This document shows, piece after piece, positions 20,837 through 47,384 of a stretch of DNA of 64,000 bases. The DNA is taken from contig CAMJOB010000002.1 in assembly GCA_946407495.1 (NCBI GenBank), positions 6,075 through 70,074 of the forward strand, written 5' to 3'. Both the position numbers and the translations under genes were made by a program. Origin of the DNA: an uncultured Bacillota bacterium. Its GTDB lineage: Bacteria > Bacillota_I > Bacilli_A > RF39 > UBA660. A model generated the notes under the pieces. It made no database searches. It saw only the letters and a list, made by a program, of their open reading frames with translations, and was not told the origin of the DNA. Each line of letters begins with the position of its first letter. The first letter of the stretch is position 1.

Positions 20837-20849
20837 AGGTTACTCCTTT

Positions 20850-23141: not shown

Positions 23142-23200
23142 TTTACTACTTCCTTTCTGTCAATATTATAACTTAAACTTGTAAAATAGTCATTATTTTC

Positions 23201-23965: not shown

Positions 23966-23981
23966 ATTCTTCCCTTCCTTT

Positions 23982-26387: not shown

Positions 26388-26412
26388 GTTATTCACCTAC
26401 TTCTTGTTTATT

Positions 26413-28748: not shown

Positions 28749-29043
28749 CTTTATAACACCATCCTCTCCAACGGTAGGTTTGCCTACTCGTTATGAAATC
28801 ATACAATTCCATGATTACAACTAACATATTATGATAGTATGGTATGGGCATTACTAAGAATGCACATACAATTCCTGGAGACAATACTAAGATTGTCTCT
28901 AGGGTTCCACTTACTGGCATAAATGCTAGAAGAGCGACTGTAACTAGAACACCACTTCCAAATAACGCTAGGTCAAATGGAGTAAATATTCCTAATATCA
29001 ATTTACCAGTTTTTGTATTTGCTGGTATTAAATAATTACGCAT
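28729..29043 (-). CDS. Small two-TM T4SS membrane protein (VirB3-like / PrgI-TcpE-like)
   Basis: 104 aa. Two TMs (FDLALFGSGVLVTVALLAF, ILVLSPGIVCAFLVMPI). Lies directly upstream of the VirB4 pair. Confidence 0.45.
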   Translation of the reverse strand: MRNYLIPANTKTGKLILGIFTPFDLALFGSGVLVTVALLAFMPVSGTLETILVLSPGIVCAFLVMPIPYYHNMLVVIMELYDFITSRQTYRWRGWCYKVGKKGK

Positions 29044-29072
29044 TTTGTATCACACACCCTTCATAATTATTA

Positions 29073-30989: not shown

Positions 30990-31018
30990 TCTTTCATCAC
31001 CTCGTTATTTCTTTTATT

Positions 31019-32044
31019 TTAATCTAATACGCACACTGGTCCACCAGTAATTCCAAATACATCAAGTAATACTTCTACTAACGTAGGTACTACAAATAAG
31101 GCTATAGCTAAGACTAATCTTGTGATTAATCTCTTATAACATTTTTGCATTGTTTCATCATCGCCAGCAATAATAGCTTTTGTAAAATCAATTGCGCTCA
31201 TTACTAGGATTATCATTGGTCCTAAAACCTTTAAATAATTAAAGATTTGTTTTACTAACCATGCTGTAGAATCTTCATCTGCAGGATCACCTAAAATTGT
31301 GTCAGTACATGATGCTCCTTGAGCTCCATCGTATGATAAAGATTTAGTTGCTTGTCCATCCTTTTCGCTTATATCATTTTTTGGACATGCATTTTTATTA
31401 CTTGTTAATTTATATTCGTATTTGCCGTCTTTTTTAACGACGCATCTATATATATTATTGTATTGTGCATCATTAGTAAAGATATCTTTTGCAATATTTT
31501 TATCAATTGTTATATTATTATCCTTATTATAAGAGATTGCTTTGCTAATATCTTTGTAGTTTGCTCCATCAATACTCCATTCAATTGTTCCATCATTTAA
31601 CATACGGAAGTATGGAACAAAGTAAGATGTTTTATTATATACTCCTACACTATTACCAATAATAGTTTTTGTAACTCCATTTGTTTCAGCATTGATTGTT
31701 TTACAAATTCCGTTACAATGATTTTGATCAATTGGATTTAACATAACCATATTATAATCATCATTTTCTTCTACAGTAATTGTTGGACATACTGTTCCAT
31801 TACTAGAATTTGATGCACGTAAAAATTCATCTGATAAGTTATTACTTTGATACCAGATTTTTCCGTTAATAATATCTCCGTCTTTCCAATTTGTTTCTAC
31901 TTTGTTACTATTTAATTTAAAAATTAGTTCTTGACTTTCTACCTTGTAAATACAAGTATTTTCTTCTTTTGCTTCTACTTTGAAAGGGCAAAATAAGCTT
32001 AGTGCTAATAATAAAGTAAATGTAAATATTTTGCTATTTTTCAT
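31019..32044 (-). CDS. Secreted Cys-containing domain fused to a C-terminal VirB2/TrbC-like two-TM hairpin
   Basis: Start re-called to ATG 32044 (MKNSKIFTFTLLLALSLFCPFKVEA signal peptide, GGAGTG RBS). The C-terminal WLVKQIFNYLKVLGPMIILVMSAIDFTKAIIAGDDETMQKCYKRLITRLVLAIALFVVPTLVEVLLDVFG aligns with the 111-aa protein. Confidence 0.5.
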   Translation of the reverse strand: MKNSKIFTFTLLLALSLFCPFKVEAKEENTCIYKVESQELIFKLNSNKVETNWKDGDIINGKIWYQSNNLSDEFLRASNSSNGTVCPTITVEENDDYNMVMLNPIDQNHCNGICKTINAETNGVTKTIIGNSVGVYNKTSYFVPYFRMLNDGTIEWSIDGANYKDISKAISYNKDNNITIDKNIAKDIFTNDAQYNNIYRCVVKKDGKYEYKLTSNKNACPKNDISEKDGQATKSLSYDGAQGASCTDTILGDPADEDSTAWLVKQIFNYLKVLGPMIILVMSAIDFTKAIIAGDDETMQKCYKRLITRLVLAIALFVVPTLVEVLLDVFGITGGPVCVLD

Positions 32045-32090
32045 AAGACCCACTCCAAATTACATTTTAACACATTAATTATAACATTAG

Positions 32091-32116
32091 AAAAAAAAAA
32101 TAGCAATTGTGCTATT
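32091..32116 (-). terminator. Rho-independent terminator after the VirB2-like gene
   Basis: Minus strand AATAGCA-CAAT-TGCTATT followed by 8 T, 26 nt after the stop. Confidence 0.65.
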
Positions 32117-32141
32117 CTTTTTTTTTCTTATTATTTTTTTA

Positions 32142-32477
32142 CTATTTAGCTGCGTTCCAGCAATTGCTCCAACTATTAGTATCACTATCAGATCCACCGT
32201 TTCCGATGATATCCATGATAACTGTTACTAATGTTACTACAAAGAAGATCAATGCAGCGTAGATACATCTCTTGATTAATCTGCTTTGTGCTGCTTTAAT
32301 TTCTTTTTCATCACTAGCAATAACAGCTTTTCCTAAATCAATAATTCCGTAAATAATTAATACGATTGGAATTAAAATTTGAACGATAGGATATATACCT
32401 CTTCTGATTACTCTAACTAGTGGTAGTAATCCACGGCAACCATCGTCAATTTCACCAATTTGAATTAGTTTATCCAT
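32142..32477 (-). CDS. VirB2/TrbC-like pilin-type two-TM hairpin protein
   Basis: 111 aa. TM1 IYPIVQILIPIVLIIYGIIDLG, basic loop SDEKEIKAAQSRLIKR, TM2 IYAALIFFVVTLVTVIMDIIG. Has its own promoter and terminator. Confidence 0.5.
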   Translation of the reverse strand: MDKLIQIGEIDDGCRGLLPLVRVIRRGIYPIVQILIPIVLIIYGIIDLGKAVIASDEKEIKAAQSRLIKRCIYAALIFFVVTLVTVIMDIIGNGGSDSDTNSWSNCWNAAK

Positions 32478-32503
32478 AATCTTATCTCTCCTTCGTTAAG
32501 AAT

Positions 32504-32532
32504 ATCATACCTTATATCAAAGTCTTTGTCAA
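32504..32532 (-). promoter_or_regulatory. Strong sigma-A promoter of the VirB2-like gene
   Basis: Minus strand TTGACA (32532-32527), 17 nt, TATGAT (32509-32504), followed by an AAGGAGAG RBS. Confidence 0.6.
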
Positions 32533-32537
32533 TTAAT

Positions 32538-33812
32538 TTACTTCCTAAACAAACCAAAAATTCCACTTTGAGAACTACCTGAATTTGTATTAGAAATAAT
32601 ATTACATCTTTGCATAAAGTCTATGATAATTTCATTTCTTTTTCGATCATTTAAAGGTGGCATATTATATTTAATTTGTAGTCCTGATTCATACTCAAAT
32701 TCTTGTACTTCTTTTTGAGTTAATAGACTCTTATTTAATACCACTTTTTTTCCTCTAAGCATAGCAATGATGGATTTATTTCTTTGCATTAAAGAATGTA
32801 ATTTTATAATGCTTGGTTCTATTAAGTAGATTATGTCGTGACATATTCCACCTAAATCATGACCATTTAAGTCTACGAATATAATCTTTGCGTCTGACAT
32901 TTTTCTAATAGTTTTAGCAAGATCATCTGCAGTTTCTGAAAACATTTGTTTATCATTGTATGCTAGAAAATCGCTTTTTTCTATTTCTATTGCGTAGACA
33001 CCTTGTCCATACATTGATGATAATTCTTTCTTCATCATGTATACCAAACTTGTTGCACCTGCATTATCTGTGACATTTTGAACACCAATTACTAATACAT
33101 TTCCAACATTTTGTTGTTGATTCATTTGTTGTTGAGGCGCTTGTTGTTGTACAGGTTGCGGCATTGGTTGTTGTACTGGCTGTTGTTGTGGTCTATCTAA
33201 ATGCATACTAACCTTTTGGTAGAACACACCTTGTTGCGGTGGTTGTGTTGGCTGTGGCATTGGTTGTGCAGGTTGTTGTTCAAACATAGGAGCTTGGGTT
33301 GGTTGTGGTTCTTCTTGTGCTAATCTTTGAACCTCTTGCTCTCTTGAAGGCTCTAATGGTGGTGGTGGAACTACTTGCTCCATTTGTGTTGGAGGTACTT
33401 CCTCATATTGGCCACTATCAGTTGTTCCTTCACCCATTTTTTGAATATGTTCAACATCTTTATATGTGTTGGAATTATTAATTAGATAAATAACTCCTTC
33501 AATATTTGTTGTAAAGTTATAAATACCATATGTTATTAGACGAGATAAAAATCCAGATGTGCACAAGTCACTACCTTCTGGAAGGTAAAATATGACTTTA
33601 TCTGGATTTAAGCCTTCTACTAGTTCTTTATATGTTTCAGGATTGTTATAATCCTTAAGAGCTGTTACATCTAATATCATCTTATTATAGAAAAAATCTT
33701 TAAATAATGCGATTAGTTCACTTGCTTGAAAGCTTCCAGTTATGCTTTTAATAATATCTACTTCGATATTTTGTAACTGATTTTGCTGTTCATTCAATAC
33801 AAGCACATTCAT
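32538..33812 (-). CDS. TadZ/CpaE-like protein: N-terminal receiver-like domain, Pro/Gln-rich linker, C-terminal ParA/MinD-like domain with degenerate P-loop
   Basis: 424 aa. C-terminal VLVIGVQNVTDNAGATSLVYMM sits in place of the GxxGxGK[ST] motif and is followed by a MinD-like layout. Lies within the tad gene set. Confidence 0.45.
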   Translation of the reverse strand: MNVLVLNEQQNQLQNIEVDIIKSITGSFQASELIALFKDFFYNKMILDVTALKDYNNPETYKELVEGLNPDKVIFYLPEGSDLCTSGFLSRLITYGIYNFTTNIEGVIYLINNSNTYKDVEHIQKMGEGTTDSGQYEEVPPTQMEQVVPPPPLEPSREQEVQRLAQEEPQPTQAPMFEQQPAQPMPQPTQPPQQGVFYQKVSMHLDRPQQQPVQQPMPQPVQQQAPQQQMNQQQNVGNVLVIGVQNVTDNAGATSLVYMMKKELSSMYGQGVYAIEIEKSDFLAYNDKQMFSETADDLAKTIRKMSDAKIIFVDLNGHDLGGICHDIIYLIEPSIIKLHSLMQRNKSIIAMLRGKKVVLNKSLLTQKEVQEFEYESGLQIKYNMPPLNDRKRNEIIIDFMQRCNIISNTNSGSSQSGIFGLFRK

Positions 33813-33835: not shown

Positions 33836-34288
33836 CTATTTACTTTTAACACGAATAGCTTTTGTATCTCCTGTTATTTGGAATACATTTAAATTTGGTA
33901 ATACATTACGGATAATAGGCATATCAATTTGGATTTGAGTTAATACTTTGTAATAGACTCTTCTATTACCTTCATCTTCTCCACCATTATTGTTTGAATA
34001 CACTTGTTTATAGCACCATCCTCCTCCTGGTCCAGCAATCATTCCTTTTGCTTCACAGTTCATATCGAATGCTGTGCTATATCCTATATCAATCATGTAT
34101 TGTTTAATTTGTTCTTCTACAGCTCGGTTATCAATATTACCTTCATATTCTTCAATTGTAGAGATGATCTTGTTCTTTACACGGAATGCTTTAGTATAAT
34201 TCACGTTAAAAGCAAGATATCCAGATACGATTACTAAGAATACTACTATGATAACTAAGTTAACTACTCCACCTACTGCATCACGCAT
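33836..34288 (-). CDS. TadE/TadF-like minor pilin candidate
   Basis: 150 aa. MRDAVGG then the hydrophobic VVNLVIIVVFLVIVSGYLAF. Lies directly downstream of the small pilin candidate. Confidence 0.35.
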   Translation of the reverse strand: MRDAVGGVVNLVIIVVFLVIVSGYLAFNVNYTKAFRVKNKIISTIEEYEGNIDNRAVEEQIKQYMIDIGYSTAFDMNCEAKGMIAGPGGGWCYKQVYSNNNGGEDEGNRRVYYKVLTQIQIDMPIIRNVLPNLNVFQITGDTKAIRVKSK

Positions 34289-34312
34289 CTATATCACCAA
34301 CTTTTTATTATT

Positions 34313-34516
34313 CTAGTCATTGTCTTCATTAATTCTACTTGTATTTTGTTTAATACAGTTTCCATTTGCGTCTCTCTTTTCACATGAAATAGAGTCCCAT
34401 TGACTACCAATACTATTTTTGATACTTGGCCACATTAACCAGAAGAATCCGATTACTGCTGCGATGGCAATCATTGTAATAACTGTTAATTGTAATTCAC
34501 CAGTTGCTGCTTTCAT
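34313..34516 (-). CDS. Small Flp-size pilin candidate (non-canonical leader)
   Basis: 67 aa. MKAATG|ELQLTVITMIAIAAVIGFFWLMW, a short leader ending in Gly followed by a hydrophobic helix. Own promoter. Two Cys in the C-terminal part. Confidence 0.4.
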   Translation of the reverse strand: MKAATGELQLTVITMIAIAAVIGFFWLMWPSIKNSIGSQWDSISCEKRDANGNCIKQNTSRINEDND

Positions 34517-34547
34517 TGGCTTTCACATCCTTTCCTATCCTAAAAAC

Positions 34548-34576
34548 ATTATAACAAAATCATTTTTGTTTTACAA
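34548..34576 (-). promoter_or_regulatory. Sigma-A promoter (TG-extended -10) of the small pilin candidate
   Basis: Minus strand TTGTAA (34576-34571), 17 nt ending in TGT, TATAAT (34553-34548). Confidence 0.55.
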
Positions 34577-34583
34577 ATATATT

Positions 34584-35393
34584 TTATGTTTGGAAAATCA
34601 TTAACATTGAGATTAAGATAATCATCATAACTCCAATACCAGTAACTACCAACATAATCATGGTTTGTTGTTCCATATGATTTAATCTTTCTTTATATTT
34701 TGTTTCCCTTGCTTTATTTTGTAAAGTTGACACGGTTCTTGAAAACATCATTAATCGGTCTTGCTTCTTTTCTTGCGAACCAATTCCTAAACGATATAAC
34801 AAACGCATCATTCTCATTGAATCTCTAACTGGATAAGTATTTGCAAATTCCATATATGGATCAATACTTGAATCACCAGCATTGATTCTATCAATCATTC
34901 TACGAAGTCCAGGTCTAAATATTTCTGGTGCATCTTGAATAGATTTACCTATTGCTACTGGAACTGTGTAGTGTTGAATTAAAATCTCTAACGATTTTAA
35001 GTAATATGGAAGCATAATATCAATTTCATGTAAGTGTGCTTTATAATTGTTTTTTAATTGCATATAAGGAATTTTAAAACATAAATAAGCAATTGCTACT
35101 GATAATACTAAATTCAAGAAGAATTGAGTATTAATGAAATCTAGTGAGCTTCCTCCACTCATTGAGAATGCTAATACGATGAAAAACATTATTAAGGCAA
35201 ATGTAATTCTCTTAGAATATAATTGATCTGCATCTGCGTCTTCACCATATTTTGCATATACTAAGAATGTATAATCATCTTCTCTTATAATATCAAAGTA
35301 TTTTTCATTATCTGCAAAGAATTTATCTTTATCGATTGTATTATTGTAGATAAGAATATACATGATAATTGCACCTATTAATAATATCTCCAT
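34584..35393 (-). CDS. tadC: TadC-like (T2SS-F family) pilus platform membrane protein
   Basis: 269 aa. N-terminal TM, mid TMs, helical cytoplasmic domain and C-terminal TM. TAATG overlap with the upstream TadB-like gene. Canonical tadA-tadB-tadC order. Confidence 0.55.
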   Translation of the reverse strand: MEILLIGAIIMYILIYNNTIDKDKFFADNEKYFDIIREDDYTFLVYAKYGEDADADQLYSKRITFALIMFFIVLAFSMSGGSSLDFINTQFFLNLVLSVAIAYLCFKIPYMQLKNNYKAHLHEIDIMLPYYLKSLEILIQHYTVPVAIGKSIQDAPEIFRPGLRRMIDRINAGDSSIDPYMEFANTYPVRDSMRMMRLLYRLGIGSQEKKQDRLMMFSRTVSTLQNKARETKYKERLNHMEQQTMIMLVVTGIGVMMIILISMLMIFQT

Positions 35394-36295
35394 TACTCAG
35401 CACCTACATTCTCATTATAATATTTTTCTCCTTTTAAAAGGAAATATGTATTAACAATCAAAACTCCGTGTAAGAGTACTTGAATAAATAATTTATCTAA
35501 TAGAACAACATAAGTTTCTCTTCCTAACAAGTACTGTACTAACATAACCATCAGGTATAACATTATACCGAACTGTAAGAAGTTCTTGTGGAAGTTTTGT
35601 CTTTCAATACGGTCACGATATACACTTTCAATAAGCATATCGATATCTGTTTGCATGTTATCTAGAGAGTCTGCAGTATTTCTTGCACCTTCTTTAGTGA
35701 TTTGTAAGAATAATTGATGCATGTTTTTAACTATATAATATGGATAATGTTGTGACATATACTCTAATGATTCATCAATTGTACCATTTTTATATGCCAT
35801 ATCTATCATATGGTTAACATCACTTAATACTGGATCTTCTAGAACTCCAGATGATCTAACACCTTCTAGAGATTTAACAAATGATTGTGTAGTAGCAAAT
35901 TCCATAATAGTATTTGAAGTATATACTTGAATTTGCTCGAAGATAAATTCTGAATATACTTTATTACATCTTAGATATGCTAAGTATGGAACAAATGCTA
36001 CTGAAATTAGCATGTATATAATACTAATAATTAAACTATAAAAATATAGATAGGTTACTACTCCAGCAAATCCTGCAATTAGGACTACTTGAATTGTATA
36101 TTGTCTAACACTATATTCTTGTCCAAGTTCTTTTGTTTTTTCACGAACTACCTTGAAAGAATATGGAGCAAACTTATTGTACATTTCTTGTACTTGACCA
36201 GTAACATATTTTCCTACATTTTCACCTTTATAGTTACGATATAGATAAATACCGACAGCAAATACGATTATTATAAATAACTCTTCTATATACAT
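35393..36295 (-). CDS. tadB: TadB-like (T2SS-F family) pilus platform membrane protein
   Basis: 300 aa. Same TM/helical layout as TadC. Immediately downstream of the TadA ATPase gene. Confidence 0.55.
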   Translation of the reverse strand: MYIEELFIIIVFAVGIYLYRNYKGENVGKYVTGQVQEMYNKFAPYSFKVVREKTKELGQEYSVRQYTIQVVLIAGFAGVVTYLYFYSLIISIIYMLISVAFVPYLAYLRCNKVYSEFIFEQIQVYTSNTIMEFATTQSFVKSLEGVRSSGVLEDPVLSDVNHMIDMAYKNGTIDESLEYMSQHYPYYIVKNMHQLFLQITKEGARNTADSLDNMQTDIDMLIESVYRDRIERQNFHKNFLQFGIMLYLMVMLVQYLLGRETYVVLLDKLFIQVLLHGVLIVNTYFLLKGEKYYNENVGAE

Positions 36296-36311
36296 ATTAT
36301 TTTGCCCCTTT

Positions 36312-37667
36312 CTAACTTTGTGGTAATGGTTGTGCCGGTTGTTGAACTACTGGTTGTACTGGCGCCTGTACCTGAGGTTGAACTGCAGGTTGTGCAGGAG
36401 CTGCTGGTGCAACCGGTGGTTTTGCAACTTGTGGTTGAGCCACAGTTGGTTGAACCGGTGTTTGTGGATGTACCGCTTGTTGTGCTGGTTGTGCCGGTTG
36501 TTGAAGTGGTACTGGTTTTGGAGGATTAACTGCAGATGTTGGAGGGGCTGCTTTAGCAGGTGCACTCTCTTTTTCTGATTCAGGTACTCCAAATTCTGTT
36601 ACCGACATTTTTGTTGGTAAATTCTTTATAATATCTGATACATCGATATTTTGATTTTCGATATATTCAATTAAATGATCACTTGGTCGAATCATTTCTT
36701 CTTTACCCATTTGTTTACGGTAAATTGTATGTGCTACTGGTTCATTATTATCATCTACATAGAATTCAGTAACTTCATCAACTTCACGATGGAACTTACC
36801 ATATTCTTTACTGTAGAATGCCTTAATGTGTACACCGATTTGTACGTAACGATAAATTGTATTTAAGAATTGGTTAACATCCAAATCTGTTTCCATTAAG
36901 GAATATAGACGATATGGGATAGCTGATGCCTTATCTGCATGGATTGTAGATAAGATATTGTGACCTGATGAAATAGAGTTACGTACAGCAGAAACAGCTT
37001 CTGCAGAACGAACTTCGGAAAGTAGAATCCACTTTGGATTCTGACGCATACAGGTAACTAATACATCAGAATAACTAGCTACGTTATTAGTTTTCATAGA
37101 TACGATATCTCTTTGTGGGAAAATCTTATCTAAGTGCAACTCTAGAGTATCCTCTATCGTTATTATCTTTTCATTTACTCTTGTGTGAGAAGCTAAGTAT
37201 TTAACAAACTCTGTTTTACCTGAACCAGTTTCACCGGCTACCATGATATTACAGTGTCCTTCTACACATTTAATTAAGAAATCATGAATATTTTCTGTGA
37301 AGTAATCTTCACTAATTAATTTATCTTTTTCTAGACGAATTTTTGCAGGAGTTTTACGGATAACTAACGCAATACCATTTGTTGCAATGGATTGATGTAC
37401 GAAGTTCATACGTAACTCAGCACTTTCAGCATCTAGAAATGGTTTGGCATTGTTAAATGTTGTTCCCATAACGTTGGAACATTGGAATGCCAACTTTTCA
37501 ACAAACTCTGGTGTTGCCCCTTCTACCTCTACTCTCATTGATCCTTGAGTAAGAGAACGAATCCATATTTGTCCTCCATTATCATATGAGATATCGGTGA
37601 TATCATCATCCTCTAGTAATGGTTTAAAAGGTCCAAAGTCTAATTTATCAAATATACTACCATTCAC
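36312..37667 (-). CDS. tadA: TadA/CpaF-family (VirB11-superfamily) secretion ATPase with Pro/Gln/Ala/Val-rich C-terminal tail
   Basis: 451 aa with a GTG start. Walker A GETGSGKTE, Asp box IITIEDTLEL, Walker B WILLSEVR, His box GHNILSTIHA. The last ~110 aa are PAQ-rich low complexity. Confidence 0.9.
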   Translation of the reverse strand: MNGSIFDKLDFGPFKPLLEDDDITDISYDNGGQIWIRSLTQGSMRVEVEGATPEFVEKLAFQCSNVMGTTFNNAKPFLDAESAELRMNFVHQSIATNGIALVIRKTPAKIRLEKDKLISEDYFTENIHDFLIKCVEGHCNIMVAGETGSGKTEFVKYLASHTRVNEKIITIEDTLELHLDKIFPQRDIVSMKTNNVASYSDVLVTCMRQNPKWILLSEVRSAEAVSAVRNSISSGHNILSTIHADKASAIPYRLYSLMETDLDVNQFLNTIYRYVQIGVHIKAFYSKEYGKFHREVDEVTEFYVDDNNEPVAHTIYRKQMGKEEMIRPSDHLIEYIENQNIDVSDIIKNLPTKMSVTEFGVPESEKESAPAKAAPPTSAVNPPKPVPLQQPAQPAQQAVHPQTPVQPTVAQPQVAKPPVAPAAPAQPAVQPQVQAPVQPVVQQPAQPLPQS

Positions 37668-38513: not shown

Positions 38514-41500
38514 TTATTTTCCAAATCTATTTGCTTGGATAGATACACAAGCTCTTTCTGATTCATTATCATTGTTACATCCAGGTGCTCCAACTTTACG
38601 TACAGCATCTTTTTCATTTAACATTTCGATTAATCCACTGTAGTAAGCATTAACACCACTGATAATTTCATATCTACCTTCAAAATCTGTGTAATTTCCA
38701 CTATTTGATCTACCAGCCTTTTTACCATAATTTCTTATAGCTTTTAATGTATTTGGTGATAACTCAAATGAGTAATCTAGATATGGGTTATCATTTGGTT
38801 TAACATCGTCAGCTTTATCTTCTCCGTAAATACTTACACCTCTTGATTGGATATCTCCTAATACCTTAGTTGGATTATTTACGTAGTTTGTATTGATTGG
38901 AACGATTTGCCCCTTATCATTCTTATTAGTTTTAGCGATTACTTCTGCACCTTCAGACCAGTTGAATCCTGTAATTCTGCTTGGACTCTTAACGTCTGCA
39001 GATGATTCTTGTTCAGTAGTTGGGAATAAGTCATCCTTAGTTACTGTACGAATTACGTAATCATCATTCTTATTTGTTGGATAACAGTTAGAAACTGTTG
39101 AGTTATTTTCACCTTTAATCTTAGTTGTCTTGTATTCTGCAAGTGAGTAGAAACAACGTACATTGAAGTCCCATCCAAAATATCCAAAGTCTGTAATATC
39201 TGCTTTGATATTATATGTATCTGGAGCATTTTGAAGTGTTGTTGATTTACCTTCAATCATATCGTATGTAGTATAGTCTACACATAAGTTTCTTACAACT
39301 TCTTGTCTAGCAGACTTAGCAGATAAGCCACCAGATTGTTGTGAAATGTAATATCTCCAGTAATCTGTATTAACTGGTTTTGCATTTAATGGGATGAAGA
39401 ATTGATTATCAACATAATGCCATCCTTCTCCTGCATTCTTAGTAGTGAATGAAATTTCACCAGATTTATTATTTACCCAAGTACCTGGGAATGAGATTTC
39501 AGCTAAGTAGTTATTTCTCTTTGCTGTATCAGCATAACATCCATCGAAGCATGTTACTACTGAGTTAACACCATTTTCATTCTTCTTAGTATCTGCTGTT
39601 GATAAAGATCTTAAGCAAGATTTTTCATTAGAATTACTATTTCCACCTGGGAATTTTAATGTTCTTGGATTGTTTTCACCTTCTGCTGTATATTGAGCTT
39701 CCATACTATATGATGAAGTCTTTGTAGTACATACAGCTGCAGCTTGACAATCTTTAACTGCTGTATTGTATCTTTCTAGGTTAGCGATATAATCAGCTTC
39801 CATTTTCTTTTGATCTAGGTAAGTATCTGCTGGACAGTTGATGTGTGAACAATCAGAAGCACAATTATCTTCAAACTTAGATGTAGATAATTTCTTGAAT
39901 CCTTCACCGAAGAAGTAGAATCTACCACCATTACGTTTATCTTCCCATGCTTGAATTTCATTGTGATCACAATACCATCTAGCATAACCATATCCATTGT
40001 CTACCCAACGGATTCTTCCATCAGCATAACGGTCATAGTAACCAGCTGCTGAACATAATTGATCTTGAGATACTTTAACTTGTTTTACACTTCCTGTAGT
40101 AGTATTTGTAGTTTGTTTAGTTCCAGTTGTTCCATATACTTTGTTGTAGCAAGATTTACTACATTTTTGAGTATATTTTCCACCATCACATTCTTTAACA
40201 CAAGCATCATAATCATCATTTGGACCACCTTGAGTAAGTCTTACATTATTTCTGTGTACACATACTGGTTGTGGTTGACAGATACCTGGCATTTGTGGAG
40301 CATCTACTTGAACGTTTGCTTCACAACGAACTCTTGAAGTTAATTTAACTTGATATTGAATTGCGAATCCTGCAACAGCTGCTTCAGGAGCACCGTATTC
40401 TACATCAACTGCTTCATAACAAGTTCTTGTACATACTTTCTTAGCTACTGATTCACTTCTGTGGAATTCATCGTAGTTATAAACATATTTTACTGTTACG
40501 TCTTTTACTTCTTTACCGAAGTATGATTTAGTATTTGATTGATCATAAATATAATCTCCAGCTTCGTTCTTTTGACGAACTGAATCATATTTACAACTTA
40601 ATGTTGGTTTAGAGTTTGCTGCATTTGCTGTAGAATTTTCATCATAGTAATGACCTTGTGCTTTAGCTCTTGCAACACTCTTATTGTATCCATCTAGGAA
40701 AGCACTTGTTTCTAGTTTTCCAAGTTCATTTCTTTGAATCTTAGAAATGTTATATGCTTCCATTACATATTTGATAGCTTGTTCAACTTTTGAATCTTCA
40801 TAAACTACTAATGTTTTTTCTTCGAAACAGTATGAGAATAAATCTCTATAGTTTCCATTAGCACCTTCAGCATCCCAAATAGCTGCTAAGTTACCATATT
40901 TACCATTATAATTTTCACCATTACGCATTACTTTACAAATTGTATTGTATTGTGGGTTAGTCTTTTCTTTTGGTCTATTCTTAGAAATATCAATTATTTC
41001 TACATAGATATTATCTTCGAATGTAGCTTTATTTTTATTATTTGAAGCACCGAATGCTGTATAAGACATACACTTATCATCTGTTTCACCATTTGCAACT
41101 TTTAATTGAAGTATTTTTCCTTCGTGAGCTGCATCTGCATTAACACTGATATATGTACTATCTTTAGTAATCTTTCTTCCAATGATATTTTTATCTGCTA
41201 ATGATGAAGCATTTGCATCAGTAACAACAAAATGTCCATCATTCTCGTCAAAATATCCTTCTGAATAACCAGTAATTATTAATGTCTTTTTATTAGTTGT
41301 ATATAATTTTAAGTTACCTCTTGATTGATTTTTATTTAAGTCGTATTGAATATCTACGTTATATTCATTTCTTATAGCTTCATAATTACATGTTTTCTTG
41401 TAATTTTTTCCATCATCTGGAATAGCCATTCCATTCTTAATTGAATTTGTTGTATATACTTGGAATGTTCCACCTTTTTGGAATAATAAGTAAGGAGTAT

Positions 41501-42320
41501 CTCCAATAAAATCGATTCCTTCTAGTTCTTTCCAATCACCTAATGCTGCATTTGATCCAGCTTTGTTATAGAACATTTTACTCTTTTCACCAGTAACAAC
41601 ATTAAATGTGTAGATAATTGCATCGTTTGTAGCTGCACTATATCCATTTGCACTATAAACTGATTTCATCTTATCTTCACTAACATAGTTTGTTAAGTAA
41701 ATATAATTATTGTAATAACCTAAGTCTTGATTAATTCTATAAGCATTTCCATCAACGTTATATGATTCTACATTGATACTTGATTGCTTAACAAGATCTT
41801 TGCTATATCTAATGATATAATTACCTTTCTTTGGTGCTAAATAGTACATCTTATGGTCTTTATCATAAGTGATACTATTGTATTCATCATCACCAGTTCC
41901 AATCTCTTTTATCTTTTGAAAATTGTCTGCATTATAGACAACTAGTTTTTTGTGAGCTCCATCAGCTACTACTAAAACGTTATTGTCTTCGTTATAAGCA
42001 ATACCATTTCCGTGACCGCATGAGTCAACTGTATATTGTCCTACGAATGCATGTGTATTTTTGTCCATTACGTAGAAAATGTTTTTGGCATTTTCGTTGT
42101 TAGTATTTGTCATAACAAAAACGAAGTGATTTCTTGTAATTGCCATACTTTGTACGGAAGTAATTTCATTATTCACTTTAGTTCCTAATGTTAATCCATT
42201 TACTCTTTCTAACTGCATTTCTAAGTTAGCACTACTTGCTGCATTAACGTTTAATACTCCAAAAATACTAAAAAGTATTGTTATTAATGCCATTCCTAAA
42301 ATTTGTTTGTTTTTTCTCAT
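38514..42320 (-). CDS. Giant secreted cysteine-rich protein (1268 aa), paralog of 43736-46585, with an extra N-terminal repeat (propeller-like?) region
   Basis: Signal peptide MRKNKQILGMALITILFSIFGVLNVNA. Residues ~430-1268 align with the 949-aa protein, including VCTRTC..RC..IC..VC..AC..EC..KCSKSCYNKVYG. No sorting signal or C-terminal TM. Confidence 0.6.
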   Translation of the reverse strand: MRKNKQILGMALITILFSIFGVLNVNAASSANLEMQLERVNGLTLGTKVNNEITSVQSMAITRNHFVFVMTNTNNENAKNIFYVMDKNTHAFVGQYTVDSCGHGNGIAYNEDNNVLVVADGAHKKLVVYNADNFQKIKEIGTGDDEYNSITYDKDHKMYYLAPKKGNYIIRYSKDLVKQSSINVESYNVDGNAYRINQDLGYYNNYIYLTNYVSEDKMKSVYSANGYSAATNDAIIYTFNVVTGEKSKMFYNKAGSNAALGDWKELEGIDFIGDTPYLLFQKGGTFQVYTTNSIKNGMAIPDDGKNYKKTCNYEAIRNEYNVDIQYDLNKNQSRGNLKLYTTNKKTLIITGYSEGYFDENDGHFVVTDANASSLADKNIIGRKITKDSTYISVNADAAHEGKILQLKVANGETDDKCMSYTAFGASNNKNKATFEDNIYVEIIDISKNRPKEKTNPQYNTICKVMRNGENYNGKYGNLAAIWDAEGANGNYRDLFSYCFEEKTLVVYEDSKVEQAIKYVMEAYNISKIQRNELGKLETSAFLDGYNKSVARAKAQGHYYDENSTANAANSKPTLSCKYDSVRQKNEAGDYIYDQSNTKSYFGKEVKDVTVKYVYNYDEFHRSESVAKKVCTRTCYEAVDVEYGAPEAAVAGFAIQYQVKLTSRVRCEANVQVDAPQMPGICQPQPVCVHRNNVRLTQGGPNDDYDACVKECDGGKYTQKCSKSCYNKVYGTTGTKQTTNTTTGSVKQVKVSQDQLCSAAGYYDRYADGRIRWVDNGYGYARWYCDHNEIQAWEDKRNGGRFYFFGEGFKKLSTSKFEDNCASDCSHINCPADTYLDQKKMEADYIANLERYNTAVKDCQAAAVCTTKTSSYSMEAQYTAEGENNPRTLKFPGGNSNSNEKSCLRSLSTADTKKNENGVNSVVTCFDGCYADTAKRNNYLAEISFPGTWVNNKSGEISFTTKNAGEGWHYVDNQFFIPLNAKPVNTDYWRYYISQQSGGLSAKSARQEVVRNLCVDYTTYDMIEGKSTTLQNAPDTYNIKADITDFGYFGWDFNVRCFYSLAEYKTTKIKGENNSTVSNCYPTNKNDDYVIRTVTKDDLFPTTEQESSADVKSPSRITGFNWSEGAEVIAKTNKNDKGQIVPINTNYVNNPTKVLGDIQSRGVSIYGEDKADDVKPNDNPYLDYSFELSPNTLKAIRNYGKKAGRSNSGNYTDFEGRYEIISGVNAYYSGLIEMLNEKDAVRKVGAPGCNNDNESERACVSIQANRFGK

Positions 42321-42378
42321 AATAACTACTCCTTATTATATACAATTAGTATATCATTAATAGAAAGTAAATAAAAGT

Positions 42379-42406
42379 AAAAAAAAGAAACTTTTTTAAG
42401 TTTCTT
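42379..42406 (-). terminator. Rho-independent terminator after CpaB-like paralog 2
   Basis: Minus strand AAGAAACT-TAAAAA-AGTTTCTT followed by 6 T, 4 nt after the stop. Confidence 0.6.
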
Positions 42407-42410
42407 CTTT

Positions 42411-43223
42411 TTATGGTTCTTGCCAAATTGTAACTTTATTGATCCAAGTTTTTAAAGTCTCTCCAGATTTCTCATCTAATGCTAGTTTTCCAGGTTTATC
42501 CTTTAAACTTTCGTTAGTTGGAACTGGGATTAATGTTGAATCATAAGAACTTAAGTATTCTGCTTTCTTTAGTAAGATGTATTGTTCTTCTGGTATTGCA
42601 AATACGATCATAGATGGAATCTTACGATCATCTAGGTCGGCAAATACTGGTTGACCATCAGCATCTTTTACTGCAAGAATTTCTACATTTTTTAATAATC
42701 TACCAAGCATAACCTTATTAGCATCTTCTGTCATGAATTCAGATGATACACGGTTTACTGCTTTTAGATAGATGTCAATATAGTTTCCTGGATACATTGA
42801 ATTACCATATGTTGTTTGTGTATTTACAGACATGTTATAAAGTACATATCCAGATGGATATTGTAGAATTACATTGGTTGGAACTTGTTCTTTTTCTACT
42901 ACAACGGATTTGTAAAATAAACTTCCTGCAGGTATTACTGTATTAATACTTGAATACTTGTAAACAACCTCGTTTAAGTTTTTAATTACTTCTCCTTTTA
43001 ACATAGAAGGGGGAACATCTTTTAGACCTACCATTTCGTCTGTAATTTGAGTTCCAGGAGGAATTTGACTTCTAGCATAAGGAACAGAAACAGGTGAAAT
43101 TGCTTGGTGTACTCTGAATGTATATCCAAAGTACAATAGGAATATCATTAGTACAACACCAACTACTGTTACTGTATTCTTATTTGATGTAATTTTCTTT
43201 AATTGATTACTTAACTCTCCCAT
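42411..43223 (-). CDS. CpaB/RcpC-like SAF-domain pilus assembly protein, paralog 2
   Basis: 270 aa. TM plus VPYARSQIPPGTQITDEMVGLKDVPPSM. Same conserved blocks as paralogs 1 and 3. Confidence 0.65.
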   Translation of the reverse strand: MGELSNQLKKITSNKNTVTVVGVVLMIFLLYFGYTFRVHQAISPVSVPYARSQIPPGTQITDEMVGLKDVPPSMLKGEVIKNLNEVVYKYSSINTVIPAGSLFYKSVVVEKEQVPTNVILQYPSGYVLYNMSVNTQTTYGNSMYPGNYIDIYLKAVNRVSSEFMTEDANKVMLGRLLKNVEILAVKDADGQPVFADLDDRKIPSMIVFAIPEEQYILLKKAEYLSSYDSTLIPVPTNESLKDKPGKLALDEKSGETLKTWINKVTIWQEP

Positions 43224-43237
43224 TTTATTCTCCCCTT

Positions 43238-43720
43238 TTATTTGTTTATATCACTACTTTTAACAATTCCTTTTCCTACATCACTGTTTGGATCTTGTAA
43301 TTCAATTTCAGCTTGTGGATTACTGATGTAGTCTGTTTCAACGATAGCATCATAGCTAGTAGAAATGTTAGCTTGTTGATCATTGAAACTTAATACTGTG
43401 TATGAATCTACTTTTACACTTACTTTTGGTGGAACTTCATTGATATCGTAGAATTTAACACTATATGAACGAGTGTTATCTACACTATCAGCGAATCGAC
43501 GAAGGAAGCTCTCAACGAACTTCTCTTTGTCCATTCTAATTAATAAGTTTAATCTGTAATATTCTACATCGATAGCATCTTGCATAGCTGCTTCTGTAGT
43601 TTCTCTTACTAGATAATAATCTAGTTCTCCACCTGTTTCGTAGTTACTAATAACATTGATTAGTAATAATGACATTAATGCTAAAATAATGATTCCTACT
43701 GTTAACATCGCTTTGTTCAT
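43238..43720 (-). CDS. Small N-terminally anchored protein (minor pilin-like or accessory)
   Basis: 160 aa. MNKAMLTVGIIILALMSLLLINVI then a soluble domain. Good GAGGAGG RBS. Confidence 0.3.
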   Translation of the reverse strand: MNKAMLTVGIIILALMSLLLINVISNYETGGELDYYLVRETTEAAMQDAIDVEYYRLNLLIRMDKEKFVESFLRRFADSVDNTRSYSVKFYDINEVPPKVSVKVDSYTVLSFNDQQANISTSYDAIVETDYISNPQAEIELQDPNSDVGKGIVKSSDINK

Positions 43721-43735
43721 AAACTTTTACCTCCT

Positions 43736-46585
43736 CTAATTTTTCTTATTCTTACATGTCTCATAGTTGTTACATCCTAGAACGCCTAACTTCTTAGCAG
43801 AATCTGCAATTGAATTGCTTGAAGTTGTGTTTCCACGGAATAATGGACTCTTGTAGACATATACTTTAGATTCTTGATCATAATTATCTTTGGTTACTTT
43901 TCCTAACCAGTCAGTATAGTTACCTTTATTATTCTTTATCTTCTTCAAGTCACTTGGAGTTAAGTAGAATTCATAATCTAAGTGATCCTTACCATTATAA
44001 ATCTTATTTCCATTTGCTTGAATCTTACCAATAATTAATTCAGGGTTATTAGCATAGTATTCATTCTTGTCAGCAGTTATTTCTGCAGCTGCAGACCAGT
44101 TGAATCCTTGAACTCTTCCTGTTGCAGATTTATCAACATCTGTAACAGTTGAATCTCCATCCTTTTTATCGCTTGGGAATAAATCGTCATTAACTACTGT
44201 TCTAATTGTATATCCAGATGGTGGTGTTTCACACTTGTCTGGAGATGAAGTCTTTCTATCACTTCCATCACTTAATGCGTAGAAGCATTGGATATTGATT
44301 TTCCATCCGAAGTAACCAAATCCTGTTTCATCATCAAGTTTATCATAAGTTTGTGCTTTAATGTTATATACGTCTGGAGCAAATGAATCATCAAACTTAT
44401 CTAAGTTATTGTAGTTAGTACAGATTGATGAGTAGTCGTCTCCTTTGTAGGAACCAGACTTATCTTTTTGTTCTTGAGATAATGTTTTTTGTGCTATGTA
44501 CCAGTTGTACCAATTAACATTTACGTTCTTAGAATCTAATGGTAAACAGAATTTATTCTTAATGTTATGCCATCCTAGATCTGTAATTTCTTTGAATGAG
44601 ATTTCACCAGTCTTATTGTTAATCCAAATTCCTGGGAATGACCATTCTGTCATATACCAATTATTTTCATTAGTATCTTTATAACATCCATTGTAATCAA
44701 GGATTGTTGTATGTTGATTTAAACCATTTTGAACTTGACCTTCGCCAGTTAATGATTTTAATGCTTCTTTCTTAGTACTTAATGGGAATTCTAATACTTG
44801 TTTTCCTTTTCCATTTTCGTACTCTGCAGAAATCTTGAATACTCCTGTCTTAGAAGTACATGTAGCAGCTGCTTGGCATTGTTGAATTGCTGTATTGTAT
44901 CTTTGAATATTTTCAGCATAATCAGATGCAACTGTTTCCTCATTTAAGTAAGTATAATTGCTACATCCAATATGACTACAGATACCATTACATTCATTCT
45001 TAGTACCAGCATATTTTCTCTTAAATCCGTTAGAGTCGAATCCGAATGCTCCTCTATCATCTCTTAGAGTTCTTTCATATTCATGATCCCAATACCATTG
45101 TGCGTATCCGCCACCTTGCCATGAGATAACTCCTTCAGGACTTCTTGTATATCCTTTACCAGAAGTATTTGCTAATCTTCCGATAATTGCAGAAGCTGTA
45201 TTAGCTACGCCTTTCTTTCCAGTTTGTCCATATACTTTGTTGTAGCAAGATTTACTACATTTTTGTGTATATTTTCCACCATCACATGATTTAATACATG
45301 CATCATATTCATCATTAGGTCCACCTTGTGTATTCTCAAATCCATTTGAGTGGATACAATATGGAACTGGTTGACAAATTTCTTTAGGTGTTGGTGGTTG
45401 AACATTTACTTCACTCTTACATTTAACTCTTGAAGTAACTTTTACTTGATATTCAATACAGAAACCAGCGATTGTTGCTTGTGGTGGTCCGTATTCTACA
45501 TCAAGAGCTTCTTCACAAGTTCTTGTACAAACATTTTTAACTTCTTCTGTTTGTGTAAATCCACCTTCATAATTATACTTATAAGTTACTGAACTAGTTG
45601 TAACTTCTTTAGCATAGAATGAAGTTTTATTAACATATTGATATTCTGTTAATTCATCTTTGAATGATTTGATCTTTTTGTAATCACAACTTAGTGTTTC
45701 ATCAACACGAATTGTTTTGTTCCCTTTTACTTCGTATTGTTTTTTAGCATTTGCAACACTTGCATTAAATGCTTTTTCGAAGTCTTGTGAAACTGGTTGT
45801 TGGTATGAAGCTAAGTTTAAGATGTAATAACTATGTAATGCTGTATTTACCATAGACTTAACTTGTGAGTCTGTGTAGTTATATTGAACTGATGGTGAAT
45901 AACAATATCCAGCAACTTTCTTATAATATTCAGTTCCTTCAGCACGATACATTGCGAAGTATTCATCTGAAATTGATTTGCTTGAATTATCACCTGTTCT
46001 TAATACATAACATGGTCCTTTGTTGTAGTTTGTATTATCTACATTCTTAGGAGATGTTGCTGTATAGTTTAATAATTCTACATAAATATAACCAGTATAT
46101 GGTGTGCTATTCTCTTTTTGATTTGCAGGTAATTCTTCATAATCTTCTCTAGATAAGCACTTACCATCTTTTTTCTTTAATTCGATTGTTACACGAATTG
46201 TTCTTCCATCTTCTCCAGCATAATCATTAACATAGAATGATAATGGTTTCTTTGAAGTTAATTCTTTACCTTCAATTTCATTTAGTGGAGTTTTAACATT
46301 TAGAACTGATGGATAAGCTTGGAAGTTTGTTTTTACATCGTTTTCTTGATTGTAAATACCTTCTTCAACTTTTAGTACTCTAAATGTTCCATTTGCTACT
46401 GTTAAAGTAACTTTTCCTGATTTGTCATCACTATATCTATAAGCCATGACATAGTGTTTATTAATATCATTTGCACTACCATCGGTAATACAATCTTTAT
46501 ATTCTTTTGCTTTTGTTGCGTATGGACTAAGTAGAACTATTGCTAGAAGTAACGCAACAAATGAGAATTTCTTATTATGCTTCAT
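43736..46585 (-). CDS. Giant secreted cysteine-rich protein (949 aa), paralog of 38514-42320
   Basis: Signal peptide MKHNKKFSFVALLLAIVLLSPYATKA. Shares Cys-rich blocks with the 1268-aa protein. Its C-terminal LGVLGCNNYETC corresponds to VGAPGCNNDNESERAC in the paralog. Confidence 0.6.
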   Translation of the reverse strand: MKHNKKFSFVALLLAIVLLSPYATKAKEYKDCITDGSANDINKHYVMAYRYSDDKSGKVTLTVANGTFRVLKVEEGIYNQENDVKTNFQAYPSVLNVKTPLNEIEGKELTSKKPLSFYVNDYAGEDGRTIRVTIELKKKDGKCLSREDYEELPANQKENSTPYTGYIYVELLNYTATSPKNVDNTNYNKGPCYVLRTGDNSSKSISDEYFAMYRAEGTEYYKKVAGYCYSPSVQYNYTDSQVKSMVNTALHSYYILNLASYQQPVSQDFEKAFNASVANAKKQYEVKGNKTIRVDETLSCDYKKIKSFKDELTEYQYVNKTSFYAKEVTTSSVTYKYNYEGGFTQTEEVKNVCTRTCEEALDVEYGPPQATIAGFCIEYQVKVTSRVKCKSEVNVQPPTPKEICQPVPYCIHSNGFENTQGGPNDEYDACIKSCDGGKYTQKCSKSCYNKVYGQTGKKGVANTASAIIGRLANTSGKGYTRSPEGVISWQGGGYAQWYWDHEYERTLRDDRGAFGFDSNGFKRKYAGTKNECNGICSHIGCSNYTYLNEETVASDYAENIQRYNTAIQQCQAAATCTSKTGVFKISAEYENGKGKQVLEFPLSTKKEALKSLTGEGQVQNGLNQHTTILDYNGCYKDTNENNWYMTEWSFPGIWINNKTGEISFKEITDLGWHNIKNKFCLPLDSKNVNVNWYNWYIAQKTLSQEQKDKSGSYKGDDYSSICTNYNNLDKFDDSFAPDVYNIKAQTYDKLDDETGFGYFGWKINIQCFYALSDGSDRKTSSPDKCETPPSGYTIRTVVNDDLFPSDKKDGDSTVTDVDKSATGRVQGFNWSAAAEITADKNEYYANNPELIIGKIQANGNKIYNGKDHLDYEFYLTPSDLKKIKNNKGNYTDWLGKVTKDNYDQESKVYVYKSPLFRGNTTSSNSIADSAKKLGVLGCNNYETCKNKKN

Positions 46586-47384
46586 TTGTTACGTCAGCCT
46601 CCTTCATTTTTTCTTCTATCTCTTTGTATTTGTCGTTCTTAGTTACTTTGTAATTTATTGTACTTTCACCATCTCTTACTTGACGAGCGATTACTTGGAA
46701 GTTTCTTGCGTTATTTCCAAACATTCTTGTACATGTTGATAAAGTAATTAAGTTATCTTTTTCGTTTACATCTACATCGAAATCAAATACTGATTCTTTT
46801 AAAGATTTTTCAATTGTTTCTTTAACGTCCTCATCCTTATATAGATCTCCGTTTAATGATGATGCTTCAGATGCATCTGGGAATGTAACTGCAAAGATCT
46901 TAAATAGATAATCTTTGTCTCCTACTGTGAATTGAACATATTTGTTTTCTTTTACGAAATCATAATGTGCAAAACTTAGTAGTTGTTCGAAACGAACATG
47001 ACTTGGATCTGCAACTAATGGATTACTTGATAGGTTCATAATATTATGCCCCATTACATAATTCATTCTGTTTACTCGATCCATATTACCGTTTTCCCAT
47101 AAGTATTGGATATTTCCATCGTTATAACGAATTTCATCTCCATTCTTTAGGATTGGGTAATCAATGTTAGTACCTTCTACCATTAACCAACCTGACACGT
47201 CTAAGTCATCATGTTTTACTTGGTACTCCTTCATTCTTTCCACTCTTGAGTCAATCTTGTATCCACTATTCCAATTTAGAATTTTGATTACTCCTACGCA
47301 TACTAGTGCGCACATTAGGGATGCTACTAATATTACGACTGCTGTCTTATTTGGTAGTGTCTTTTCTTTTTCTTTCTTCTTCAT
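46575..47384 (-). CDS. Sortase (class B-like)
   Basis: 269 aa. N-terminal TM, NIDYPILK, His motif VMGHN, catalytic TLSTCTR, Arg in VIARQVR. Confidence 0.8.
   Translation of the reverse strand: MKKKEKEKTLPNKTAVVILVASLMCALVCVGVIKILNWNSGYKIDSRVERMKEYQVKHDDLDVSGWLMVEGTNIDYPILKNGDEIRYNDGNIQYLWENGNMDRVNRMNYVMGHNIMNLSSNPLVADPSHVRFEQLLSFAHYDFVKENKYVQFTVGDKDYLFKIFAVTFPDASEASSLNGDLYKDEDVKETIEKSLKESVFDFDVDVNEKDNLITLSTCTRMFGNNARNFQVIARQVRDGESTINYKVTKNDKYKEIEEKMKEADVTNEA

Follow-up and report, generated by a model that had tools for sequence, protein, structure and literature searches.

Giant cysteine-rich exported paralogues in a conserved pilus-like and type IV secretion-like gene cluster of uncultured Bacilli

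The stretch of DNA analysed here, called the window throughout, comprises 64,000 nucleotides (nt) of contig CAMJOB010000002.1 from an uncultured Bacillota bacterium; its G+C content is ~30%, and nearly every gene lies on the minus strand. Two of its genes encode large cysteine-rich proteins, GIANT A (38514..42320, minus strand, an open reading frame (ORF) of 1268 amino acids (aa)) and GIANT B (43736..46585, minus strand, an ORF of 949 aa). GIANT is our own name for the family of exported proteins, of about 900-1300 aa, to which both belong. The two genes are part of a cluster of ~32 kb (19565-51846) between greA and VTT/rmuC, which combines genes of a pilus-like machinery with those of a type IV secretion system (T4SS).

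The two paralogues and their family

GIANT A and B align over 909 columns with 38% identity (BLASTP, E 3e-167), residues 379-1250 of A pairing with residues 104-940 of B. Both N-termini consist of a basic n-region, a hydrophobic core and an AxA-like site, the predicted cleavage falling between VNA and AS in A and between TKA and KE in B. Hydrophobic 19-residue windows are restricted to the N-termini, and outside residues 5-30 none exceeds 1.6 on the Kyte-Doolittle scale. The sorting motif [LNSPI]PxT[GNASD] is absent from both proteins by regular-expression search, as is a C-terminal anchor made of a hydrophobic segment and a charged tail. The first-pass annotation of this DNA had described two cysteine-rich secreted paralogues without sorting signal or C-terminal transmembrane (TM) segment, and the ORFs, the BLASTP alignment, the hydropathy profile and the motif scan all agree with that description. 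By their sequences, A and B go back to an old tandem duplication within an uncharacterised, Sec-exported family.

That annotation also recognised no known family, which is borne out. Neither A nor B matched an entry of Pfam, NCBIfam or the PDB sequences, whether the query was one sequence or a profile of 66 members. The word-indexed search returned 120 clusters of homologues, all unnamed or labelled 'hypothetical protein [Bacilli bacterium]', and a full hidden Markov model (HMM) search of 1.84 billion representatives found 694 sequences at E<=1e-3 and 515 at E<=1e-30. The HMM search places the conserved core of the family at profile positions about 250-948. The AlphaFold2 (AF2) model of B, the canonical family member of the two, has a mean confidence (pLDDT) of 77.6, with 690 of the 949 residues at 70 or above. 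From the N-terminus onwards it shows a beta-sandwich, then a helical segment, a sheet built of very long strands (319-393), a helix-loop-helix (425-452) and, behind these, domains of the mixed alpha/beta type. Foldseek revealed no match of this model at E<=1e-3 in PDB or BFVD; beta-sandwich and phage-protein matches in these databases were not significant and were dismissed. The core can provisionally be regarded as a predicted new fold with respect to PDB and BFVD.

GIANT A carries an additional, lineage-specific N-terminal domain (aa about 28-310; 41391..42239, minus strand), which local phmmer found only in the window species and in a close relative (P0014/L005). The A-specific part amounts to about 280-320 residues. 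The ~430 extra residues counted at first pass have to be reduced to about 300, since A 311-440 aligns with the variable N-terminal domain that B itself possesses. A match to the SGL domain (PF08450, the six-bladed beta-propeller of the SMP-30/gluconolactonase/LRE-like kind; E 0.004, 17.1 bits) stays under the gathering cut-off of 26.3, and the AF2 model of the A N-terminus, built from an alignment of two sequences, is poor (pLDDT 41.7) and shows repeated four-strand meanders. With this low-confidence model all 108 Foldseek matches at E<=1e-3 are beta-propellers, bacterial surface proteins included; among the 50 matches listed, the TM-scores are 0.2-0.3 and the root-mean-square deviations about 10 A. 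The domain is probably a beta-propeller, to judge from the model, and the propeller-like look described at first pass is in keeping with the weak SGL match and the propeller-only Foldseek matches. Two queries with the A N-terminus (41021-42320) retrieved nothing from the word-indexed search; this search, however, also missed P0014, an orthologue with 92% identity that local phmmer detects at E 2e-268. The empty result is therefore unreliable and a lack of relatives for this domain unproven.

The cysteine content is 2.4% in A (30 residues) and 2.85% in B (27 residues), whereas most cytoplasmic proteins of the window contain 0-1%. In the block VCTRTC...KVYG nine cysteines align between A and B, just as the first-pass annotation stated, and a tenth one of B, C376, is replaced by Ala in A. 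Among 227 family members, cysteine occupies 26 columns in at least half of the sequences, and C430, C434, C443 and C447 are invariant. C376 and C680 are replaced together in all six cases, GIANT A, which lacks this pair, among them; the same holds for C404 and C541 (6/6 cases, in six different sequences with differing substitutes) and for C353 and C570 (4/4 cases). C938 and C944 mostly co-occur, and about a fifth of the family members miss the pair. Because the cysteines are lost only in pairs, the pattern points to disulfide partners. Such disulfides would tie the long-strand sheet to the downstream domains, which means a long-range stapling of the conserved core. Both proteins end with the motif GxxGCNN...C, which had been noted before as G.(L/P)GCNN...C and proves to be the family consensus.

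The four invariant cysteines form a twin CX3C motif (C430-x3-C434 ... C443-x3-C447 of B; 45245..45298, minus strand; the equivalent of A at 40149-40202), which is borne by two predicted helices, residues 425-435 and 441-452 of the B model. Its second half is encoded by the near-identical DNA patch discussed below: the patch peptide CDGGKYTQKCSKSCYNKVYG contains C434, C443 and C447, and C430 completes the motif. It is probably a helical hairpin stapled by two disulfides, of which the pairing (430-447 and 434-443, or the alternative) is predicted. Small Tim proteins likewise possess two CX3C motifs on consecutive helices, with a likely stapling disulfide pair. This is a structural analogy only, not homology, and in GIANT the hairpin is one element within a 900-aa extracellular protein. 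Among exported proteins of Bacillota such a density of co-varying disulfide cysteines is unusual, and it bears on the question how strict anaerobes oxidise such proteins. Another cysteine-rich protein of the cluster, 344 aa long (31019-32053, minus strand), has 10 Cys (2.9%), a signal peptide and, at its C-terminus, a T4SS-pilin domain; richness in cysteine is general among the extracellular parts of this machine and extends beyond the giants.

A conserved chromosomal cluster

Starting next to greA (51935-52420), the cluster opens with conserved genes upstream of the giants (47393..51846, minus strand): a 517-aa multi-TM protein, an extra CpaB-like protein and a 644-aa membrane-anchored immunoglobulin-like (Ig-like) protein. 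The class-B sortase homologue, GIANT B, a DUF5411 protein, a CpaB-like protein, GIANT A and another CpaB-like protein follow. The pilus-motor half (33836..37667, minus strand) encodes the secretion ATPase, two polytopic membrane proteins in the position of TadB/TadC, a 67-aa and a 150-aa pilin-like protein. The T4SS half (19565..33812, minus strand; assigned by Pfam) continues beyond a 424-aa protein with two T4SS-pilin-like proteins, a VirB6/TrbL-like protein, small proteins, a VirB4-like protein, a SpoIID-domain hydrolase, VirD4 and a 423-aa protein, before VTT and rmuC are reached as the other flank. Housekeeping genes lie further out on both sides, with GatCAB, AspRS, trigger factor, Lon and rubrerythrin on one and HD, U32 peptidases, YceG and RuvX on the other.

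The order GreA-p517-Ig-Srt-GIANT-DUF5411-CpaB-ATPase-...-VirB6 is near-invariant in 77 loci of GTDB species representatives, and about 75 species of uncultured gut Bacilli with small genomes share it. In 28 long metagenomic loci, which were located via VirB4, the T4SS half runs on to p423-VTT-RmuC. The host records are named uncultured gut 'Bacilli', 'Tenericutes', 'Mollicutes', 'Mycoplasma sp. CAG:877' and Ca. Faecimonas, the latter placed in Bacilli incertae sedis by NCBI; we take these names to correspond to the GTDB order RF39. An integrative and conjugative element (ICE), that is a mobile element, was considered and rejected, given the housekeeping flanks on both sides and the same position in many species. 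No relaxase or integrase was found among the screened ORFs, which cover most of the window. Gene content and position mark the cluster as a vertically inherited chromosomal locus, and it looks like a domesticated core-genome T4SS, not like an ICE. The vertical inheritance of the whole chromosomal, non-mobile cluster had been missed at first pass, as had the translational coupling of the sortase homologue to the giant gene. A literature search retrieved no description of this RF39-type pilus/T4SS system.

The gene of the class-B sortase homologue (46575..47384, minus strand) overlaps with its stop the start of GIANT B, and in nearly all loci such an overlap of 11-38 nt with the GIANT start is present. 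The protein matches PF04203 (E 1.8e-7; 31.4 bits, above the cut-off of 26.6) and S. aureus SrtB structures (E 2e-12), while its match to TIGR03064 stays under the cut-off of that model. His113 and Cys218 (TLSTC) are at least 95% conserved in 86 sequences. By these similarities it is a true SrtB relative. When all ORFs of the window were scanned, none in the cluster combined a canonical sorting motif with a hydrophobic tail; the LIPVPTNESLK sequence of the CpaB paralogues was rejected as a sorting signal, as it misfits xPxT[G/N] and has no tail behind it.

The DUF5411 protein (43238..43720, minus strand; PF17424, E 4e-47) always follows GIANT. Its pilin-like leader MNKG is followed by MLTVGII. 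In gut Clostridia, DUF5411 has previously been reported from predicted pilus-like operons (PMC9523054). Two more proteins of the window resemble it in having a short basic leader that ends with Gly and precedes a hydrophobic helix. These are the 67-aa protein (34313-34516, minus strand), which begins with MKAATG and ELNLTV (leader MKAATG, then ELNLTVITLIAIAAVIGFFW) and is almost invariant across species, and the 150-aa protein (33836-34288, minus strand; leader MRDAFGG). For the pilin no Pfam match was obtained.

The three CpaB/RcpC-like paralogues (37683-38492, 42411..43223 and 49472-50251, all on the minus strand) share 60-80% nucleotide identity and a conserved LIPVPTNESLK near each C-terminus. 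Loci L010 and L013 keep all three CpaB genes together with only one GIANT, from which a loss of paralogue A follows for these loci. The secretion ATPase (36312-37667, minus strand) has matches to VirB11 and TadA family models that stay under their cut-offs, and its orthologues carry PF00437.

Some peculiarities of single genes in the cluster may be mentioned. The ATPase has a low-complexity tail of ~90 aa, in which Pro, Gln, Ala and Val abound (36312-36600, minus strand), and a Pro/Gln-rich stretch is present in the 424-aa protein (32900-33400, minus strand). In VirD4, 12 Asp follow one another and the C-terminus is acidic (20850-21300, minus strand). The longest ORFs of the 804-aa hydrolase and of the downstream 284-aa protein overlap by 74 nt (23982-24055, minus strand); the 284-aa ORF has an unlikely GTG extension, and translation probably begins at internal sites.

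No other protein of the cluster evolves as fast as GIANT. Its mean Kimura distance is 1.38, compared with 0.24-0.33 for the ATPase and the platform proteins, 0.48 for DUF5411 and 1.08 for the sortase homologue, and the N-terminal 350 aa are its most variable part. Both paralogues are under purifying selection: the ratio of nonsynonymous to synonymous substitutions (dN/dS) is 0.13 when A is compared with L005 and 0.18 when B is compared with L006, and it does not rise above 0.23 in any region. After removal of the shared phylogenetic signal, the residual distances of GIANT correlate best with those of DUF5411 (0.66) and the Ig-like protein (0.64). The pair GIANT-DUF5411, usually accompanied by the sortase homologue and the Ig-like protein, is duplicated in six other loci, and the layout of the window, with GIANT A between two CpaB genes, is common to L005 and L007.

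The near-identical DNA patch

Within the two giant genes a patch of 61 nt, encoding CDGGKYTQKCSKSCYNKVYG, is identical at 60 positions (40131..40191 in A; 45227..45287 in B, corresponding to aa 434-453). It sits within a 121-nt repeat of 89% identity identified by a repeat finder (40116-40236 and 45212-45332), and its exact core of 39 nt occurs twice in the window, with 0 occurrences expected. The codon-aligned genes are 54% identical overall. The best windows of 20 codons have an identity of 0.95 at the patch, and outside it none exceeds 0.87, so that the claim of an identity far above the surroundings, made at first pass, is confirmed. Gene conversion or strong constraint had been offered there as explanations, and the codon runs, the four-taxon test and the column entropies described below carry signs of both.

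Identity at the amino acid level is expected, because the patch motif belongs to the 100 residues that are best conserved in the family (column entropy 1.4-1.5 bits, 2.1-2.8 bits elsewhere). What has to be explained is the identity of the codons. Where A and B have identical residues, 65% of them use identical codons overall; at the patch, runs of 17, 26 and 31 identical residues contain 0, 1 and 2 codon mismatches, respectively. In simulations such runs arose with P=0.025, 0.0034 and 0.0024 under residue-specific probabilities, and with P=0.005, 0.0006 and 0.0002 under codon-usage homozygosity. In the tree the A clade (window, L005 and L007) is sister to a clade with B and the single-copy loci L009, L010 and L013. 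The duplication is accordingly old, and synonymous sites should be saturated.

A four-taxon test was done with A and B of the window and the two paralogues of L007, which has the same two-paralogue layout and a B orthologue that is 49% identical. Over the whole gene the informative nucleotide sites are distributed 172:95:61 in favour of orthology, whereas in a window of 30 codons at the patch the distribution is 1:9:1 and favours a grouping of the paralogues by genome. Both paralogues of the window read ...TQKCSKSC..., and both of L007 have S and K at those two positions. At the patch A and B differ at 1 of 60 nt, compared with 5 of 60 between B and its 80% identical orthologue L006. Seven other within-genome paralogue pairs show 40-51 identities in 57 nt at the patch motif, and their best windows of 60 nt (46-57/60) lie mostly outside it.

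An explanation without recombination would combine the most constrained peptide of the family, biased A+T-rich codons and some synonymous constraint. It can draw on the near-invariance of the motif throughout the family and on the background codon identity of 65%, which is high already. Also in its favour, and counting against conversion, is the spelling of Tyr-Asn as TAC AAC, both rare codons, at 40149-40160 and 45245-45256, which recurs in orthologues only ~33% identical; some synonymous constraint does exist. TAT AAT would spell a perfect -10 hexamer, and selection against an internal promoter, by avoidance of TATAAT, is possible. The simulations, though, which already incorporate the residue-specific codon identity, still give a P of about 0.003, and other paralogue pairs with the same motif do not come near the identity of A and B. 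The paralogues of one genome also have derived residues in common, K/S in the lineage of the window and S/K in L007; 9 of 11 informative sites group them by genome, and at the patch A resembles B more closely than B resembles its own orthologue L006. We regard an origin without recombination as rather unlikely. The comparisons indicate a putative short gene-conversion tract in a place where purifying selection is, in addition, the strongest of the whole family, and in our reading the length of the tract lies between a few tens of nt and some 120 nt.

Recombination between the two copies of the repeat might, in principle, delete 5,096 bp in frame. The product would be a chimera with the N-terminus of B and the C-terminus of A, and DUF5411 would be lost along with one CpaB gene. 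A deletion of ~5.1 kb had been proposed at first pass; it is conceivable in principle, but neither the deletion nor a chimeric form could be identified among close relatives, in which P0001 and P0002 are B-like along their whole length. L010 and L013 are ruled out as patch-to-patch recombinants, because A is missing there while DUF5411 and both CpaB genes are kept.

Proposed role and comparison with known systems

GIANT could be the fast-evolving, surface-exposed and target-binding subunit of a pilus/T4SS machine, the patch being a conversion tract. We hold this to be the best explanation at hand and yet a tentative one, somewhat short of probable; this judgement covers the explanation as a whole, with the family, the cluster, the surface-subunit role and the conversion. 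The cluster joins an assembly set of the Tad/type-IV-pilus-like kind (ATPase, two membrane proteins, pilin-like proteins with short leaders, CpaB-like proteins) with a Gram-positive-type T4SS (VirB6, VirB4, VirD4, wall hydrolase). After export by Sec, GIANT would dock onto this machine, the adjacent pilin-like DUF5411 protein being the likely partner, and the translationally coupled sortase homologue may process it. At the surface it would bind targets, with a specificity set by the variable N-terminal third; gene duplication and the propeller-like domain acquired by A would result in two specificities per cell. The signal peptide without an anchor, the fastest evolution in the cluster, the variable N-terminus, the correlation with DUF5411 and the Ig-like protein and the co-duplication all speak for a surface subunit.

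Several observations weigh against this explanation. What GIANT does, we infer from its signals, the conserved cluster and the fast N-terminus, and its tie to a pilus or to target binding likewise comes from sequence and gene context. No adhesin-type domain was detected by Pfam in 46 family members, and dN/dS reveals no positively selected region; mirror-tree correlations, moreover, are weak evidence. As GIANT has no sorting signal, its link to the sortase homologue is positional only. Tad-family membership of the cluster is weak as judged by sequence: the ATPase matches (VirB11, 1.9e-33; TadA family, 2.9e-30) all stay under the curated cut-offs, as do the RcpC and TIGR03177 matches of the CpaB-like proteins, and the two proteins in the TadB/TadC position have no T2SSF match even at E 0.1, their resemblance being one of position and topology only. 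Finally, no prepilin peptidase gene was seen in the cluster. The first-pass annotation had named pilus-tip adhesins and T4SS surface factors as candidate roles. A surface role in the context of pilus and T4SS fits the conserved neighbourhood, but the adhesin role we only infer.

The genes around GIANT would also allow for a non-adhesive, wall-crossing envelope scaffold or channel, which would substitute for the secretin or outer complex missing in monoderms and work together with the CpaB-like protein. CpaB/RcpC is the partner of the secretin in diderm Tad systems, a CpaB-like gene is always located two genes downstream of GIANT, each GIANT of the window has a CpaB paralogue of its own, and the ~600-aa core is conserved and rigidified by disulfides. 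A core scaffold evolving 4-5 times faster than the motor proteins would be unusual, however. GIANT has no membrane segment and no recognisable wall-binding domain, duplications elsewhere comprise GIANT-DUF5411 but no CpaB, and in L010 and L013 three CpaB genes accompany a single GIANT, so that we consider a scaffold unlikely. Still less probable, in our opinion, is a secreted effector, toxin or enzyme that is delivered by the cluster or acts on target cells or host substrates. Substrates of T4SS as a rule reside in the cytoplasm and carry no Sec signal, no catalytic family matches the core by sequence or fold, and no immunity-like gene is consistently adjacent, even if the signal peptide without an anchor, the fast evolution and a weak EndoU-nuclease match in one family member (E 0.012) would suit such a protein. 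The coupled and co-duplicated sortase homologue, which keeps its catalytic His and Cys, and the conserved C-terminal motif raise the question whether GIANT is a wall-anchored sortase substrate with a non-canonical signal, for example GxxGCNN...C itself. Neither xPxT[GN] nor a C-terminal hydrophobic segment or charged tail is present, and about a fifth of the family do without the C938/C944 pair; we give this idea little credence.

A bolder version of the preferred explanation sees in GIANT the specificity-determining, new-fold subunit of an undescribed machine that defines the lineage. Pilus-like filaments and a domesticated core-genome T4SS would enable small-genome, auxotrophic gut Bacilli to attach to bacterial or host partner cells and to exchange DNA or proteins with them, while the coupled class-B sortase would attach or process GIANT via a non-canonical signal. 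In this extended form we believe the proposal to be improbable.

The uncultured small-genome Bacilli of this RF39-type group occur widely in the guts of humans and animals, where they are believed to rely on other organisms. Because these Bacilli keep a ~32-kb cluster at the same chromosomal site, it is a strong candidate for how partners are contacted. Among its extracellular parts GIANT is the largest and evolves fastest, and it lacks known relatives. The conserved pilus/T4SS cluster in the chromosome is a more interesting result than the conversion patch, which is a minor and ordinary feature of tandem paralogues.

Among known proteins, the tip adhesins PilY1/PilC of Pseudomonas and Neisseria offer themselves for comparison. 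They are likewise Sec-exported non-pilin proteins of ~1000 aa, encoded beside genes of minor pilins, with a variable N-terminal and a conserved C-terminal part. In contrast to them, GIANT is cysteine-rich, its propeller-like domain is N-terminal and lineage-specific where present, and its host is a monoderm; A, B and 44 other members have no Pfam match to the PilY1/Neisseria PilC domain, and the B model has no PDB fold match (Foldseek, E<=1e-3). As far as a placement at the tip is concerned, GIANT offers only its adjacency to and co-duplication with the pilin-like DUF5411 protein, at the level of genes. TraN of F-like conjugative T4SS is also encoded within T4SS genes and combines a signal peptide with many conserved disulfide cysteines and a variable region on a conserved scaffold. 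It is, however, an outer-membrane protein of diderms, whereas GIANT is longer, belongs to the pilus-like half and has no TraN match in Pfam. PrgB and PrgC of pCF10 and CnaC with SrtD on pCW3 are similar in being exported surface factors that accompany Gram-positive T4SS genes and have a sortase nearby. Unlike these LPXTG adhesins, GIANT has neither sorting signal nor anchor, is rich in cysteines and shares no domains with them.

At the level of the whole cluster, the nearest counterparts known are Tad/Flp loci and the predicted DUF5411 pilus-like operons of gut Clostridia (PMC9523054), which it resembles in a putative CpaF-type ATPase, membrane proteins in the platform position, DUF5411 and small pilin-like genes. 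It differs in platform proteins that do not match T2SSF and in being fused to a full T4SS, fixed in the chromosome next to greA and equipped with the pair of GIANT and sortase homologue.

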